From a virus (taxonomy: Duplodnaviria; Caudoviricetes): 64,000 nt of DNA. The stretch lies in IMG/VR virus record IMGVR_UViG_3300030104_006170; one strand, written 5' to 3'. Every line of letters begins with the position of its first letter. The stretch's first letter is position 1. Below, piece by piece: positions 18,085 to 25,770 of this stretch. The position numbers and the translations under genes were made by a program. A model generated the notes under the pieces. That model worked only from the letters and a program-made list of their open reading frames with translations. It did not search any database and had not been told where the DNA came from.

Positions 18085-21000
18085 TTATGGTCCAGTACCC
18101 CAAAAGTTTTGCCAAGCATTTCCACTCTGGTCACCATCCGTACTAGTACCTTCAGTATTATTACCTTGTGCTTCTCCTTGTGCTGCTGCTGCCTGTTGAG
18201 CTTCTAGTTCAAGTATTATTTCTTGTTCATCTGCCAATGGTTTTTGTTCGTCAGTTGTGGTTTTTATACTTCTATTATTATACATCTCAGTGTTAGCAAA
18301 GAAGTTGTTTGATAACGCGTTTTGTAATTCTGATACAGGAGCTTCTAATCCTTGTCCCCCAATATATTTAAAGTTCATAGAAACATTTGCTATCATAGGT
18401 TGTACCCCAATACCTTCTGGATTTAAATCATATATCAAAGGGTCGTAACTAAAACTTACAGAATCAATAGCTATTTTTGTGTGGTAAAAATCACCTATTC
18501 TTAAAACACATATAGGTGGGGCACCAAAAGCTGTGTTATCAACGTCTCTTTCACTATCTAGACTACCGTCCGCATTGACTGTTGGTATGGTATTTCCCGG
18601 TCTAGTGCACTGAAGTAAAAAACTTAGTCGGTTATTTAGTCCTTCTGGAGTCATCGAGTGAAATGCTGGGTGAAAGTGTTTTAATTGTCGTTTTAATGAA
18701 TTGTATATAAATTCATCGTCTTGTTTTAATGCGTTAAAATAATTTTCTTCACCAAGTAGTTTTGCTAATATTTTTGCTGTATCTAATTTTTTTTCTTTTC
18801 CCGCACCTGATTGGTTATTAGCTGTGGCTTGAACTTCGCCAGGTGGATTTTCTCCTTGGTTCTGACTTTGTCCCCAAAAATCATCAAAAGAACCAGCCAT
18901 CCCTGTATTTTGTACGTTGTTTGGTATGCCGTTATTTGCATTTGCATTATTACTGGAACCACTGTCTAGGTCTATTACACCTTCATTTGCGGGGTCAGTA
19001 GCGTCTAGGTCTATTACACCTTCTTGTCCGTTAGGGTTGTCTGGTGTGTTAACACCACTTGTATTGTTATTCATTGTACCTTGTGGGTCAGCATTATACT
19101 CATCCGTAACATCATTTTGTATACTAATAATATCATCTACTGATAGGTTGGGGAATATGGAAGCTAATTCATATATATCATATTCTTTACATCCAGCAAA
19201 AAATGCTTCTAGAGCTTGGTCTGCCACATAGTCTGGCACTCCTTTTAGTGTGTTTTCTGTTATTGTGTTTAGTATCGATGGGTGGTCAACAACTATTTTC
19301 CAGTTTAATGTACCAATTCTTTCGGTGTAATTATACGTGTATATGGGTTCTGGTCTTCCTAGGAAGTTAACTGAATTCCATTGTGCCGAATTAGTATCAC
19401 CCACTTGTAAATCGTAAGGTGGGAACCACATTATTCTACCACCTTGTGGACCTCTTTCGGATTTAGGTAATTTTAATAATTCTGATGTACCTCTCCAAGC
19501 AAGGTTTTCTATAGAAAACATGTACTTACTTACATTTTTTTCTGTTTTTTCTGTATCCACATTAACACCAAAAATAGGTGCTATATTTAAATTAAATGTA
19601 TTAGTTAATACTGAACCCGCTTTACCTAGATGATTTCCTTTATGTCTTTGTAGGTTTTCCATTTTCCAATAAGGGTCATCTTTTGTCCAGGTTCTACAAA
19701 ATTCTCTAGCCACTAAACCACCACCAATACCGAATACACCTGAAGATTCGTCTACAAATCTAACACCAGAACCTTTAGAAATTTCTTTATAACCATCAGA
19801 AAATACTTTAGATGTTTGGTCAATTGCATGTCCTGCATGTTTTCTTCTAGCTCCACCCATAAGAGGTGCTGAGTCTATAAGTTTTTGTGTTTCATCTAAT
19901 ATACCTCCTTTTCTTTTTGGTTTTTGGAAAGACCTTGTAGCTAATAAGTCATAAGGTGCGTTTGTAGATGCGAATGACTGAGTACCCATCCAGGTCCAAC
20001 CACCAGCTAAACTTCCTCCATCATTATAGGTATAACCTTGTACCCCAAACATGTAGAAAGGCCATAAAGGTTGTCCATCTACTGTTTCTAATTGTTTAGC
20101 TAATGTAGATGGGCCGTAAACTAAAGCATTTATAGGTCTACCAAACTCATCACTTGGTACTGCACCCATAGGGGACTGAACCTTTGATGGTTCGTTATTT
20201 TTAGAACCTAAGTAATAGTATGGTGTTATATTAGTTACACCATCTCTTAATTGTACTCTAGAATAATCCGGTCTGTATTTGTTAAAATCTAAAGACGTAA
20301 ATAATGATTTTTGTTGTTCTGGACCCATATAACTTATGAATCTATCACTAGGTACTGGATTAGATACTGTGTTGGTTGGTATGTTATCACCACCACTTAA
20401 TATATTTACTATAGCATTAGCGGTAGCTTGTACATTACCGAAAACACCTGTAAAACTTATTCCGTTTTTAGCTAAAAAGTTGATGTCGGGTTTAAAGATA
20501 CCTTGAAAATAGTTACCTGGTATATTAGAGTAACCATAATATAAGTTTGTTATTCTGGATAAAAAGTCTGTACCGTCCAACTCTTTTTCTCCTGGGTTGG
20601 CACTTACGTTAAACATAAATGAACCTTTATCACTTAAATCTAAGTCATTCCATCCTTGGTTATAACCTAATTGTTCTCTTAAATTACCACTAGATTTTTG
20701 TAATAACTCACTATCATTTAAAATTTTACTATTTAAAGTATTAACAATACCATTAGTTATATTAACTGTTTCTAATATTTCAGCCGACGTATACTCTGAA
20801 GAAACAAATGATTTTGGTTGGAGTGTGTTGGGTGTTACATAGTCTAACCCTCTTCTTGGTAATACTTTTTTAACATTTATAGTTTGTACATCTGTAAATC
20901 CACCTTCTGGACCATAACTATTATCTAAGAATAGACTGGTTAAGTTTGGTGGTGCTAATTCTTCTACTGTTTTTTGGTCTACTACGGGACGTTCGTATAT

Positions 21001-21192
21001 ACTAGTATTTTGTTTTCCCGGAGGTTGGATGCCGAAGGGTGGTGAAACAGGATTACCGTCAGCAAGATACGAACTTTGTAGATTTTTACCTAATAAAAAA
21101 ACACGTAACTTTTCGGTAGACGCTACATTGGGTCTATAAGGACCCTGCATCCCAAAAGCTTTTACACCACCTGTATTTAGACCTACTGACAT
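18085..21192 (-). CDS. Large baseplate / tail-tube-initiator-like protein
   Basis: C-terminal PPICVLRIGDFY...IDSVSFSYD...QPMIANVSMNFKYIGG resembles the tube-initiator fold of contractile systems; lies between tape measure and LysM genes. Confidence 0.6.
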   Translation of the reverse strand: MSVGLNTGGVKAFGMQGPYRPNVASTEKLRVFLLGKNLQSSYLADGNPVSPPFGIQPPGKQNTSIYERPVVDQKTVEELAPPNLTSLFLDNSYGPEGGFTDVQTINVKKVLPRRGLDYVTPNTLQPKSFVSSEYTSAEILETVNITNGIVNTLNSKILNDSELLQKSSGNLREQLGYNQGWNDLDLSDKGSFMFNVSANPGEKELDGTDFLSRITNLYYGYSNIPGNYFQGIFKPDINFLAKNGISFTGVFGNVQATANAIVNILSGGDNIPTNTVSNPVPSDRFISYMGPEQQKSLFTSLDFNKYRPDYSRVQLRDGVTNITPYYYLGSKNNEPSKVQSPMGAVPSDEFGRPINALVYGPSTLAKQLETVDGQPLWPFYMFGVQGYTYNDGGSLAGGWTWMGTQSFASTNAPYDLLATRSFQKPKRKGGILDETQKLIDSAPLMGGARRKHAGHAIDQTSKVFSDGYKEISKGSGVRFVDESSGVFGIGGGLVAREFCRTWTKDDPYWKMENLQRHKGNHLGKAGSVLTNTFNLNIAPIFGVNVDTEKTEKNVSKYMFSIENLAWRGTSELLKLPKSERGPQGGRIMWFPPYDLQVGDTNSAQWNSVNFLGRPEPIYTYNYTERIGTLNWKIVVDHPSILNTITENTLKGVPDYVADQALEAFFAGCKEYDIYELASIFPNLSVDDIISIQNDVTDEYNADPQGTMNNNTSGVNTPDNPNGQEGVIDLDATDPANEGVIDLDSGSSNNANANNGIPNNVQNTGMAGSFDDFWGQSQNQGENPPGEVQATANNQSGAGKEKKLDTAKILAKLLGEENYFNALKQDDEFIYNSLKRQLKHFHPAFHSMTPEGLNNRLSFLLQCTRPGNTIPTVNADGSLDSERDVDNTAFGAPPICVLRIGDFYHTKIAIDSVSFSYDPLIYDLNPEGIGVQPMIANVSMNFKYIGGQGLEAPVSELQNALSNNFFANTEMYNNRSIKTTTDEQKPLADEQEIILELEAQQAAAAQGEAQGNNTEGTSTDGDQSGNAWQNFWGTGP
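18965..19023. repeat. 20-bp exact direct repeat encoding EGVIDLD twice
   Basis: TCTAGGTCTATTACACCTTC at 18965-18984 and 19004-19023. Confidence 0.9.
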
Positions 21193-21256: not shown

Positions 21257-23206
21257 TTATGCCCCTAATGACATAGCGTCATTTAGTAGTTTACCAGTTT
21301 CTAAAGCTACACCTCTATCCATTTGTAATAGTCTTAGGAAGTCTTGTCCATTCATCCTAGCTTCACCATTATTAACATCAATATTACCCTCTAACTTTAA
21401 ACTAAGAGGTCTCATTGTTGTGGTGTTAGTTGTATTATTTGTATTTTCTACTATACTTTTATTTAAAGTTTCTGTTCTACTTGCTATAGACGCATCAAGG
21501 TCTTCTCCTAATTTTACATTTCCTGCTTGTGCTGCTACTAAAATATCCCCTTTATCAAAAGTTGTGATACCTTCTTTAGTTATTATTGCGTCCTGTGCTT
21601 GCATTTTTTTTAACTGTTCTAGAGCTTGTTTGGCTCCTTCTGAACCAGCCTTTTCAATGTCTTGTGCAACACTTTCAATATCACCCCTACTCAAAGCGTC
21701 TAATTGTTCTTGGGAAAGAGAAGGCATTTCATTTGCTATCTTTTGGGTTAGGGTTTCTGTTCTTATAGCTTTATCCGCACCAAAACCCATTTCTTCTTTA
21801 ACTAAAAGTCTAATACCCGCGTCCATCGCTGCAAGATATTGGTTTGCTTTTTCTGCAACTGTAAGTTGTTGTTTATAGACATCAGAATCTGACATACCTT
21901 CTTTTCTTAACAACTCCATTTGTTCTTCGGTAACATTAGAAACATCAACCATTTCTTCAATACCTGGAATTTTTACTTGTGCAACTCCTCCCTCACCAAT
22001 CTTTGCCATAGAAGCTAATAACTCTTTATCAGTTTCTGTCATATCACTAAAGTCACCTATTTGATTGAAAACTTCGGCTCTCCTAGCTGACCTCACAGCT
22101 GTATCTGCTAAATCCTGGTAACTCATACCCATTTGTTCTGCCATAGCTTTTAACTGTCGTCTTTGTTCAGGTGATATTGAAAACTTGTTTTTCTCTTTGT
22201 CGAAGTAAACGGCAGAGGCTGCTGTATCTGCAATTGCCTCTTGTAGACCTTCTAGGTCATTAGTAGCCATGTACATTAATTTAAATGGGTCTGCTAAATC
22301 TCCAACAGCTCCTCCAATTACACTCATTTGTGCAGCAAAATCAATTGCACCTTCTGGGTCGAAGAATTTGTCCGCAAGACTAGTAACGGTACTCATTTCA
22401 ATACCTAATGCTTGTCCTCTCGCTACCATTCTAGCGAGTCCTTCTACACCTCTTTCAAAACCATAGGTATTAATTAATTTTAATTCGTCCCCAATATTAG
22501 CTAGGAATTTTTCCATTACTACCCCAAATTGTCTACCTGTTTGTAGAATTTCAGACATAGCATTATTTGTTTCATCTACTTTACCCATAGCAGTATCTAA
22601 ACTAAAACCAATAGTATCAAAACCTTCAGCAAATTTTCCAGCATCAAAACCTTCTAAAGTTTTAGTTAATAGTGCAGCTCTTTCTGTAACTTCGGGGGGT
22701 ATAAAAAGATTTCTTGAGATTTCTTGGGTCATTCCTTTGAATGTCTCAAATAAATCGTGTACGGTCATACCGAATTTAGAAGCCGACATTCCAGCTTCAG
22801 TCAGACCATCTACTGTGTCCATTAATTGTTCGTTGGACATTCCCAGGGTTTTAGATATATCTACCCTAAGTGTGTCTTCTAAAGCTAACATGTTTAAAAT
22901 TGCATCCATATTACCTTCAACGTCCATAGTTCCTTTCCTTATAGATTTGATAGCATTAGCCATAGCTTCTAAATCTCCCGCAGTTGTTTCTGTTTTGGGC
23001 ATCCTATCTTGAGCTAATTTATCAAGTTTTTGAAATAGTGTTCCTTGGGGTGGTGGTGAAGTATTACCTTGTGGTTGTTGTTGAGGTCCTATTTGTGCTG
23101 TCCAACTAGCTCTATTATAACCCGCGTCTTCAGCCGCTTGTCTATCTGCACTGGAGAGTGAGTTCCAAGGTGTTTTACTAGCTAAATTATCTGCAACACT
23201 TGCCAT
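21257..23206 (-). CDS. Tape measure protein (putative)
   Basis: 649-aa Ala/Met/Glu-rich helical protein directly downstream of the tail chaperones and tube gene. Confidence 0.7.
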   Translation of the reverse strand: MASVADNLASKTPWNSLSSADRQAAEDAGYNRASWTAQIGPQQQPQGNTSPPPQGTLFQKLDKLAQDRMPKTETTAGDLEAMANAIKSIRKGTMDVEGNMDAILNMLALEDTLRVDISKTLGMSNEQLMDTVDGLTEAGMSASKFGMTVHDLFETFKGMTQEISRNLFIPPEVTERAALLTKTLEGFDAGKFAEGFDTIGFSLDTAMGKVDETNNAMSEILQTGRQFGVVMEKFLANIGDELKLINTYGFERGVEGLARMVARGQALGIEMSTVTSLADKFFDPEGAIDFAAQMSVIGGAVGDLADPFKLMYMATNDLEGLQEAIADTAASAVYFDKEKNKFSISPEQRRQLKAMAEQMGMSYQDLADTAVRSARRAEVFNQIGDFSDMTETDKELLASMAKIGEGGVAQVKIPGIEEMVDVSNVTEEQMELLRKEGMSDSDVYKQQLTVAEKANQYLAAMDAGIRLLVKEEMGFGADKAIRTETLTQKIANEMPSLSQEQLDALSRGDIESVAQDIEKAGSEGAKQALEQLKKMQAQDAIITKEGITTFDKGDILVAAQAGNVKLGEDLDASIASRTETLNKSIVENTNNTTNTTTMRPLSLKLEGNIDVNNGEARMNGQDFLRLLQMDRGVALETGKLLNDAMSLGA

Positions 23207-23234: not shown

Positions 23235-23444
23235 TTAGAATCTGTTTTTACTCTTGTTTTTAGCTTGTTCCATAGCTTCATTCTTTTTTTGAAATTCTTC
23301 TGTTAAGAAGTTAACGTAAAATCTACGTTCGAATGTAGGCATTTGTAAGAGGTCGGACCACGCGATGTGGAGGTGTTTCATTAGATAATAGAATTCTTGC
23401 AATAGGGCATTCCTATATGCCGTAGAAAGGACGAAAAAACTCAA
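23235..23444 (-). CDS. gp51-like tail/hub assembly chaperone segment, probably expressed by +1 frameshift from the upstream ORF
   Basis: EFYYLMKHLHIAWSDLLQMPTFERRFYV resembles T4 gp51; only a TTG start, overlapping the end of 23413..24171 at a T6-CGT run. Confidence 0.7.
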   Translation of the reverse strand: MSFFVLSTAYRNALLQEFYYLMKHLHIAWSDLLQMPTFERRFYVNFLTEEFQKKNEAMEQAKNKSKNRF

Positions 23445-24171
23445 CCCCGAATGTAATTCTCGCGTTTATCTCTTCATTCGATGGAGTTAACACAGGGATA
23501 GTTAAATCTAGTGAAGGCGAGTTTTCTCTAATTACTTTTCTGATGTTTTGAGAATCTCGAATTGGCATTGTTTGAATAAATTGTGCGATAGTCATTGGGT
23601 CTCTTACTCCGTCTATTTCTTTAATTAACATTTCTAATTGTTTGGTCATGTAATTATTTACCGCAGCGTTTTTATTTTGTTCTTCTATTTGTTTTAGTGT
23701 TCTTTCGTGGTGTGGTGTTAAAAAAGATAATTTTACTTTTTTCTTGGATACTTCTAAGTAATGGTCAAATTCATTATTTTTGTCTAGTTCAACACCTACT
23801 TCATTAGTTTTTAACACGGATAAATCTATTGTTGTTTCAAAGGACTCTTTTGTTTTTGGGTCCGTTAAAGTAACTGTATAGTCAGCACCAAAAGCTGTAT
23901 TCCTTAAAAATACAAGTACAGCTTCTTTATCACATTCTGGCATATCCATAATATCTATATCTTTATCTAAAATTTTTCTAGATATTAACATATTGATTAA
24001 TTCACCATTAGCTTGTAATGATGGTGTTGCCAATAAATTTTCGTCTGAAGCATTTAAGTAGGTTACCTTTACAGATTTCTTTTTATTTTTATAAAAAACA
24101 CCCTGAGAAGGTAAACTTACCATGTCATAAGGTAAGATTGTTTCTGGTTGTTGGCCTAATTGTTCTTGCAT
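23413..24171 (-). CDS. Tail/baseplate hub assembly chaperone (T4 gp26-like)
   Basis: VSLPSQGVFY, KVTYLNASDENLL, LVFLRNTAFGADY, C-terminal FGVEFFRP; located between tube and tape measure genes. Confidence 0.75.
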   Translation of the reverse strand: MQEQLGQQPETILPYDMVSLPSQGVFYKNKKKSVKVTYLNASDENLLATPSLQANGELINMLISRKILDKDIDIMDMPECDKEAVLVFLRNTAFGADYTVTLTDPKTKESFETTIDLSVLKTNEVGVELDKNNEFDHYLEVSKKKVKLSFLTPHHERTLKQIEEQNKNAAVNNYMTKQLEMLIKEIDGVRDPMTIAQFIQTMPIRDSQNIRKVIRENSPSLDLTIPVLTPSNEEINARITFGVEFFRPFYGI

Positions 24172-24337: not shown

Positions 24338-24826
24338 TTAGTAAACTAAGATACATCTATCTGGTCTTAAAGTGGCTGAAATATTTGCAAGACCGTCATC
24401 ACTATAACTTAAATCATTAAAGTTAACATCCGTTAAGAATGTTCCTTGTAGAATCCATTTTTCCACTACCACACCTGTTGGGTCTAGTAGTTCTAGGTCG
24501 ATGTTTTTCTTATAACCTGCAGCGTAACCCATTCTACCAGTTACAGATTCTGCGTGTGTTCTAACCCACTCCATAAGAGCTTGTGCTGCTGATGGTCCGA
24601 TTGGGTCTCTAAATGTTACGTTTATTGTGTTCCATACAAATCTACCTGCTACATAAGTAGAGGTGTTTAAGAACGGTACTTCTACAGAGTTAATTGTAAC
24701 TTGTGGTCTAGAAGTACTCTCTACATACCATTCATTAATTCCCAAAGAAGAGTCAAATCTCATGATAAACCTATTCTTTTTCTTTGGTTCATAAGGTATA
24801 GGCATTTTCATTAATAAGTCAGCCAT
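24338..24826 (-). CDS. Tail tube protein (T4 gp19-like)
   Basis: YEPKKKNRFIM, YVAGRFVWNTINVTFRD, LMEWV, GYAAGYKK, LDPTGVVVEKWILQG.F...LSY motifs. Confidence 0.9.
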   Translation of the reverse strand: MADLLMKMPIPYEPKKKNRFIMRFDSSLGINEWYVESTSRPQVTINSVEVPFLNTSTYVAGRFVWNTINVTFRDPIGPSAAQALMEWVRTHAESVTGRMGYAAGYKKNIDLELLDPTGVVVEKWILQGTFLTDVNFNDLSYSDDGLANISATLRPDRCILVY

Positions 24827-24895: not shown

Positions 24896-25750
24896 TTAAT
24901 TGACTTGTTTTAATACTATTTTGTTCATTCCACCCTCAGATGTGTCATAAACTATAAAATCTACATCTGGAAATTCTACTTGTAACACCTCTTTTATAAA
25001 AGGAATTATAGCGTTTATATTACCCAAATCATCATCACTAAACCCAACCGATAGTTTTTCATTACCCATACTTACCATTTGAGAGGCTTTAGATACTATA
25101 TTTGTTACGTAATCTCTAAGTGCTATTTTTTTATTTTCTTCTGGATTTGCTGCGGAGCCACCCTCTAACCCAAATTTATCTGTAAATGTTTTGGATGTTA
25201 CTGGATGATATTCGTGTGAATCCAAATAAGTTTTTAATATTATTTCTGGGTTTTGACCATCTAATTCTGGATAAGTTTGTTGAATATTATCAATCATTCT
25301 ACCTAATTCTTCCTCATTAAATGTGTGGGCTATAACTAAATCCATACCTTTTCTTAAAACTATGGGGTCGTGTCCTCTAGCTGTTATAATTGATATTGGG
25401 TTTGCATATATTAAGGCCTCTTTAAATTTATCGAATGAAGGTGCGAATGAACCCATACCTAAAGCCTTTTCTAAATCCATTAGGAAAGCGTCTTCATCTA
25501 TAAAATTATCAAAAGCTCCTTCATCTAACTTATAATCATCACTATCCCTAACCAAAGCAAATTCTTCTGTCCCCACATTAACACCTACCCAACCATCATC
25601 GGTCTTCCTTAACATTTTAATAGTAGTGGGCATTTTAAGAATGTTATCATCCCAGTCAAAACTATATGCTCTAATACCATTAGACTGTTCCTCGATTAGT
25701 CCACCAATCCTTTTTAGTTGTTCTTTAGTTATTATTATCTGTTGTGACAT
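24896..25750 (-). CDS. HAD-superfamily phosphatase-like protein (likely start MSQQ at 25750)
   Basis: Motif I FDWDD, motif II ITARG, candidate motif III Lys (NPEENKK), motif IV GFSDDD; N-terminal IIITKEQLKRI motif. Confidence 0.65.
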   Translation of the reverse strand: MSQQIIITKEQLKRIGGLIEEQSNGIRAYSFDWDDNILKMPTTIKMLRKTDDGWVGVNVGTEEFALVRDSDDYKLDEGAFDNFIDEDAFLMDLEKALGMGSFAPSFDKFKEALIYANPISIITARGHDPIVLRKGMDLVIAHTFNEEELGRMIDNIQQTYPELDGQNPEIILKTYLDSHEYHPVTSKTFTDKFGLEGGSAANPEENKKIALRDYVTNIVSKASQMVSMGNEKLSVGFSDDDLGNINAIIPFIKEVLQVEFPDVDFIVYDTSEGGMNKIVLKQVN

Positions 25751-25770
25751 ATAATATAAATACAAATTAA

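Follow-up and report, generated by a model that had tools for sequence, protein, structure and literature searches.

A +1 ribosomal frameshift at a UUU_Y site probably produces the long form of the tail assembly chaperone in the phage whose DNA is described here. The stretch of 64,000 nucleotides that was analysed, hereafter the window, contains what appears to be the tail-assembly-chaperone locus of an uncultured, marine giant myovirus related to T4, and this locus would be decoded in two ways. The majority of ribosomes would read a gp26-like open reading frame (ORF1) as far as its TAG stop codon and release a 252-aa protein, TAC-N. A minority would change frame shortly before that stop and continue into a gp51-like frame (ORF2), adding the C-terminal part that distinguishes the long form, TAC-NC.

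Letters and frames at the junction

The two reading frames lie on the minus strand, and ORF1 ends within ORF2 (table 1). The minus-strand letters given for this junction in the initial annotation, running from GTT GAG through TTT TTT CGT CCT to GGC ATA TAG, are present at 23445–23413. It had also been proposed that the downstream frame, which is the +1 frame, has no ATG before its conserved part, and that the locus gives two products of 252 aa and about 311 aa. The first ATG is indeed codon 22, inside the conserved part, and both lengths match those predicted for ORF1 and for the fusion. At the junction, the +1 frame opens 50 nt upstream of where ORF1 stops; a TGA, within GT TGA G, closes the −1 frame. 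A −1 reading was rejected for the junction of the window, since that frame stops at this TGA just upstream and is only 17 codons long.

Table 1. Features of the chaperone locus and its neighbours, in positions of the whole window.
Feature	Position	Strand	Basis or remark
TAC-N ORF (ORF1, gp26-like, 252 aa)	23413..24171	−	ORF list, PF12322, phrog_150; standard-decoding product
ORF2 (gp51-like, 69 codons, +1 frame)	23444–23235	−	ORF list; 32 nt overlap with ORF1
Candidate shift site TTT_TTT_CGT	23431..23439	−	sequence and conservation in relatives
P-site TTT at candidate site	23436–23434	−	
+1 codon TTC at candidate site	23435–23433	−	
New-frame codon GTC at candidate site	23432–23430	−	
TAC-C extension (gp51-like C-terminal part)	23235..23432	−	65 codons + stop, +1 frame
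0-frame stop TAG of TAC-N	23413..23415	−	18 nt past P-site codon
Tail tube gene (gp19-like)	24338..24826	−	phrog_4542 at 8e-31; weak Pfam gp19 match
649-aa ORF, tape-measure position	21257..23206	−	assigned by position only
1035-aa ORF after tape-measure-position ORF	18085–21192	−	

The octamer TTTTTTCG alone carries no meaning, as its four copies in the window (32% G+C) are at chance level against 3.3 expected; its frame, its position and its conservation do exceed chance. Among the 18,780 codons counted in the window, in-frame TTT_CGN occurs at the junction only. Codon use over the same set, per 1000, is 2.4 for CGT, 0 for CGC, 0.1 for CGG and 27.8 for AGA. There are no tRNA genes in the window.

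Identity of the two frames and their neighbours

The gp26-like and gp51-like identities that were first assigned to the two frames are borne out by profile searches. ORF1 matches PF12322 (T4_baseplate) with 35.8 bits (8.7e-9), the Pfam gathering cut-off being 24.5 bits, and it matches phrog_150 at 1.8e-10. ORF2 matches positions 70–120 of phrog_634 (E 1e-4), which carries the name of T4 gp51, 'baseplate hub assembly catalyst'; ORF2 and T4 gp51 do not align in a direct BLASTP comparison, and the relation is visible only through profiles. Pfam puts T4 gp26 (208 aa) and gp51 (249 aa) in one family, and both match PF12322 end to end, with 215.6 and 177.5 bits. The two T4 proteins are detectable paralogues by BLASTP (2e-6), and gp51 is the longer by about 48 C-terminal residues.

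The fusion was modelled by a +1 shift through the four-base word TTTC, and residues 1–293 were used. It matches phrog_150 in a single stretch, from position 12 to position 278 of 282 (49.4 bits), while ORF1 alone (41.7 bits) ends at position 233. The T4 proteins end at comparable points of this 282-position profile, gp26 at 235 and gp51 at 280. In a multiple alignment, T4 gp26, which ends ...KEFFELL, halts after ...KEFF where ORF1 has ...VEFF, and the gp51 tail ...KMIPAERGF... pairs with ...QMPTFERRF... of the ORF2 part. Because the profile end points and the alignment coincide, ORF1 is taken as the equivalent of gp26, and ORF1 plus ORF2 as the equivalent of gp51. T4 gp51, a gp26 paralogue with an added C-terminal extension, and the modelled 311-aa fusion are colinear.

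In T4 and 1380 Straboviridae-type records, gp51 has an unbroken gene to itself, and its transcription diverges from that of gene 26. T4 and the phage of the window have this protein family in common but differ in its layout: T4 uses two genes, whereas the window's phage has one gene that needs a frame change. According to citing papers (PMC10885494; see also PMC12846349), tail assembly chaperones of T4-like phages were identified by Vladimirov, Gautam and Davidson in 2022 (Virology 566:9), and some T4-like phages, as outlined in PMC10885494, have a short gene plus a long 'fusion' gene in place of frameshifting. The equation of gp26/gp51 with lambda G/GT made in the initial annotation therefore stands but is not new: going by the account in PMC10885494, both the chaperone identity and the equivalence of the T4 gp26/gp51 pair are already published (Vladimirov et al. 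2022).

Another observation on the T4 proteins concerns gp28. T4 gp26 (L083:3803–4429) has a weak match (E 9e-4) to phrog_1140, 'baseplate hub distal subunit', which is the gp28 family. T4 gene 28 (L083:6349–6882) is followed directly by the tape-measure gene, gene 29, and shares 56 nt with gene 27. The match suggests that gp28 and the chaperone family may be remotely related.

The gene pair was said to lie between the tube and tape-measure genes, and this is the arrangement found, with the tube gene (phrog_4542) upstream and the 649-aa ORF downstream. Neither the 649-aa nor the 1035-aa ORF has a significant Pfam or PHROG family match, and the same is true of the 289-aa ORF that immediately precedes the tube gene (24896–25765, minus strand). 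The gene syntenic to the 649-aa ORF is annotated as tape measure in the phages immuto, SP-15 and HSE3. The order of tube gene, gp26-like gene, gp51-like frame in +1 and ORF in tape-measure position recurs in cultured Flavobacterium, Bacillus and Microcystis phages. The gp26-like gene is present as a single copy in each of five related genome records, one of them complete, so a second gene of the T4 kind is not available in these phages as a source of the long form. Identity of the tube protein is 72–96% in the closer relatives sampled and 39–48% in distant ones. This protein is far better conserved than its neighbours, the values of 72–96% being found in contigs with the chaperone at 41–69%.

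The predicted structure of ORF1 (AlphaFold, pLDDT 85.7) was compared with known structures. Foldseek found nothing in the PDB at E <= 0.001, and a profile search of PDB sequences returned a chance match only. The top matches by VIA-align have Z-scores in the noise range; they include 3klu (B. subtilis YqbN, which we take to be a prophage protein) with Z 5.5 and the HK97 tail assembly chaperone 2ob9 with Z 5.3 over 92 aligned residues. Complex prediction for the tube protein with the ORF2 peptide scored 0.00, which gives no answer either way.

Conservation of the site and alternative routes to the long form

Homologues of ORF1 number 3024 in metagenomes, and the best of them (about 110) are 244–254 aa long; blastn of the locus against GenBank phages gave no match. 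Three sets of loci were compared: 80 IMG/VR loci around relatives of ORF1 (41–96% protein identity), 101 loci around relatives of the distant homologues in Microcystis phage Mel-JY01 and huge-phage LR756508, and five cultured phages. Searched with an HMM of the ORF2 part, 175 loci have this part in the +1 frame and a single locus has it in −1. Those 175 loci, together with L185 and the cultured phages, make up 181 loci of the +1 type, with 123 unique contexts.

The junction motif, whose conservation in related phages had been named as a check on the initial annotation, is kept as (T/C)TT_Y in all 181 +1-type loci. A single locus has CTT as its 0-frame junction codon and the other 180 have TTT; a C or T follows without exception. 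The 0-frame codon that follows is TGG in 93 loci, CGT in 34, CGG in 29, CGC in 20, TAC in two, and CTA, TTC and CAC in one each, and the first codon of the new frame is GGC, GTC or GCC in 175 of the 181. The consensus over the 123 unique contexts is TTT TTT YGN CCT, and TTT TTT CGN CCT is invariant in the 80 loci around relatives of ORF1. The distance from the slip codon to the 0-frame stop is 12–39 nt across all loci.

Synonymous codons at the site are also constrained. In the window clade, where pairs with identical residues were compared, synonymous-codon identity is 1.00 at the TTT codons of F245 and F246 against a baseline of 0.57. It is 0.39–0.69 over the three codons before the shift site, 0.34 at the Arg codon and 0.97–1.00 at the next two. 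Much of the nucleotide invariance after the T-run could be explained by dual coding alone.

The break between the frames sits in a homopolymer, and deletion of one T would join them, as might be expected of an assembly or homopolymer sequencing error, or of a pseudogenising indel, in one continuous ORF. The same frame relation and ORF1 length, however, recur in >180 loci and >100 protein clusters, drawn both from independent metagenomes and from isolates whose genomes were obtained on various sequencing platforms. Since >100 protein clusters from independent assemblies hold ORF1 at 244–254 aa, the chance of such an error can be treated as negligible.

The length of the T-run bears on how the frame is changed. 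The run is 6–8 nt long in 163 of the 181 loci, longer than +1 slippage strictly needs, and an identical fusion protein would result if RNA polymerase slipped on the homopolymer and deleted one U in some transcripts, or if the ribosome slipped by −2. Runs of 6–7 T, seen in ninety percent of loci, allow for some contribution by either route. A −2 shift is reportedly the accepted route for the phage Mu chaperone (Xu et al. 2004), which provides a precedent. In the other 18 loci, however, the run has only 3–4 T, too few for polymerase slippage or −2 re-pairing, and still these loci keep the +1 layout and (T/C)TT_Y. The short-run junctions read TTC TTT TGG in 14 loci, TTT CTA in LR756508, TTC TTT CGT in HSE3 and GXN1, and CTT TGG in immuto. 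Known slippage sites, moreover, usually have 7–9 or more identical bases. The −2 slip, left open in the initial annotation, is disfavoured by the relatives with TTC TTT CGT, TTC TTT TGG or TTT CTA, which cannot re-pair at −2. Because 18 loci have such short runs, transcriptional slippage or a −2 slip is unlikely as a general mechanism, and we hold either to be an unlikely source of the long form.

The cultured phages show the same spread of junctions. These are TTT CTT TGG in immuto, TTT TTT TGG in RM378, TTT TTT CAC in SP-15, and TTC TTT CGT in both Bacillus phage HSE3 and Streptococcus phage GXN1. None of the five cultured phages carries a frameshift annotation.

The state of the database entries is an observation of its own. 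GenBank records NC_055915, NC_004735, NC_031245, MF418016 and PP395634 (L186–L189, L001) have here a protein labelled 'baseplate hub subunit' or hypothetical and, after it, a short ORF that is likewise called hypothetical. In these records of Flavobacterium, Rhodothermus, Bacillus and Microcystis phages, the conserved +1 coding region is partly unannotated and carries no mark of ribosomal slippage.

Recoding would be unnecessary if the gp51-like frame were translated separately and acted as a small protein of its own. Initiation could then be at the TTG (23444) or at an internal ATG, or could be re-initiation coupled to ORF1. This TTG lies in ORF2 two codons ahead of the T-run, some near-cognate start is found upstream in the +1 frame in 133 of the 181 loci (including the window), and small separate ORFs have been called here by GenBank annotators. 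Yet the GGGG beside the window's TTG is without a spacer and so provides no ribosome-binding site, and ATG, GTG and TTG are all absent upstream in the +1 frame in 48 of the 181 loci. A +1-frame stop lies two codons ahead of the T-run in 33 of the 181, and it is precisely at the T-run that conservation of the +1 peptide (FFGLS.xYR) sets in. The first downstream ATG is at codon 3 to 67, or is absent, and its position is not conserved; initiation at downstream ATGs would cost 10–33 of about 65 conserved residues.

Natural variants of the arrangement speak to the same question. In two IMG/VR loci, L095:2227–2550 (from a complete 188-kb genome) and L101:2215–2511, the C-terminal part is free-standing in the −1 frame, with its own ATG right after the stop of the gp26-like gene. 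These loci read as a natural split version of the chaperone pair, and because they have a stand-alone C-part, fusion is not strictly needed in every lineage. In a 595-kb uncultured phage (LR756511.1, locus L084, about 459.7–460.0 kb) the C-part follows a canonical T_TTT_TTC heptamer (GGT TTT TTC) in the −1 frame, and the junction also has a TAATG stop-start overlap; here the C-part could be made by −1 frameshifting or by re-initiation. Such cases favour separate translation in principle. The free-standing versions, however, have about 16 extra N-terminal residues and lack TTT_Y at the junction, where L095 has TTC TTG TAT and L101 has TTC CTT TGG, and T4 gp51 shows that the C-terminal domain works when fused. 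Separate translation of the window's gp51-like frame therefore seems to us quite unlikely.

A probable +1 shift at UUU_Y and its known counterparts

A +1 shift at UUU_Y is the best reading of the locus because the site is kept, starts are absent in some loci, some T-runs are short, CGT is rare and the product is colinear with gp51. In the proposed mechanism, the peptidyl-tRNA-Phe of a minority of ribosomes would stall with the second UUU in the P site and the rare codon CGU waiting in the A site. The tRNA would re-pair on UUC, one base forward, and GUC would be read next. Translation of 65 further codons would then give the 311-aa TAC-NC, with the junction ...VEFF-VLSTAYR..., and the tryptic peptide predicted to cross the fusion junction of the window is ITFGVEFFVLSTAYR. 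TAC-NC would be the single-gene equivalent of T4 gp51, and TAC-N would correspond to T4 gp26. If the two forms act as lambda G and GT do, the tape-measure protein would be coated by both, and recruitment of the tube protein would fall to the extension. The analysis shows what the genes are, their synteny, how the frames relate, that the site is conserved, that starts are lacking and that the product is colinear with gp51; from these we infer the shift event and its efficiency, and by analogy the binding roles. In the larger clade the A-site codon is TGG, for which slow decoding is not obvious.

Two candidate stimulators of the shift were set aside. RNAalifold found 0 conserved pairs over 15 junctions, and the window's own junction folds no better than shuffled versions (z −0.25), so a 3′ stimulatory RNA structure is not proposed. 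A Shine-Dalgarno-like element lies upstream of the site in 43 of 44 contexts of the window clade and in 21 of 79 others; conservation of the F-G-V-E peptide accounts for it, and no stimulatory role is claimed.

Frameshifts by +1 have precedents in bacteria. The E. coli gene prfB, which encodes RF2, uses a CUU_UGA +1 frameshift, and CTT_TGG in Flavobacterium phage immuto would give the same re-pairing from CUU to UUU. Relatives in the window clade often have GGAG or GGGG a few bases upstream, a further likeness to prfB. In prfB, however, the A site holds a stop codon, whereas here it holds a sense codon, and beyond the window clade the Shine-Dalgarno-like element is not kept. To our knowledge, programmed +1 frameshifts at sense codons are rare in bacteria and phages, the cases being prfB, YopN-TyeA and a few phage and ICE genes.

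[quoted passage not shown] Sites of this Yersinia type resemble the one described here in having UUU in the P site followed by a pyrimidine, in needing no stop codon, in showing no evident RNA structure and in giving a functional fusion by low-level shifting, as we propose for the chaperone. The bacterial cases are single genes in few species, whereas here the site is found in hundreds of phage lineages with fixed neighbours (YGN CCT). The initial annotation had called UUU_CGU an established +1 motif, and it is documented as such: the shift site of influenza A PA-X is UCC_UUU_CGU (PMC5009743). PA-X has the identical shift dicodon, likewise places a rare CGU in the A site and lacks a stimulatory structure, but differs from the window in its eukaryotic ribosome, its UCC E-site codon and its unrelated protein function.

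The frameshift of the lambda tail assembly chaperone G/GT (Levin et al. 1993; Xu et al. 2004; reviewed in PMC5009743) gives two products with a common N-terminal part, the major one short and the minor one extended at its C terminus, as is proposed here. The lambda shift is by −1 on a tandem slippery heptamer, in contrast to +1 on UUU_Y, and the lambda chaperone is about 140 aa long, in contrast to the 252 aa of the window's chaperone, which belongs to the gp26/gp51 family. The direction of the shift is not fixed among tail assembly chaperones, as Mu (−2) and the archaeal myovirus HSTV-2 (probably +1; PMC5009743) demonstrate, although the protein families and shift sites in these phages differ from those of the window.

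As far as checked, the conservation of a +1 UUU_Y site across a very large phage clade is absent from any annotation. The locus of the window and about 180 relatives form a deep natural series of TTT_Y with CGN, TGG, CAC, TAC or CTA in the A site, and the series includes built-in controls: the −1 heptamer variant, the free-standing variants and the two-gene variant of T4. Its intermediate architecture ties T4 gp26/gp51 to the logic of lambda G/GT. The finding also corrects the annotation of many phage genomes, in which a 'gap' of 20–110 nt and a short hypothetical ORF have been called in place of the long chaperone. The practical value is moderate, tail chaperone biology being known and the gp26/gp51 equivalence published. 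A broader reading, to which we give an even chance, is that +1 frameshifting at UUU_YGN_CCU, rather than polymerase slippage or separate initiation, is the ancestral and still dominant route to chaperones of the gp26/gp51 type across a very large clade of myoviruses, with T4 genes 26 and 51 derived. Myoviruses of marine, freshwater and soil origin would all belong to this clade, among them the cultured phages that infect Flavobacterium, Bacillus, Streptococcus, Rhodothermus and Microcystis, which would currently be mis-annotated. If true, no other natural set of bacterial +1 frameshift sites at sense codons would come near this one in size, and the divergent genes 26 and 51 of T4 would be the unfolded version of a single recoded gene.
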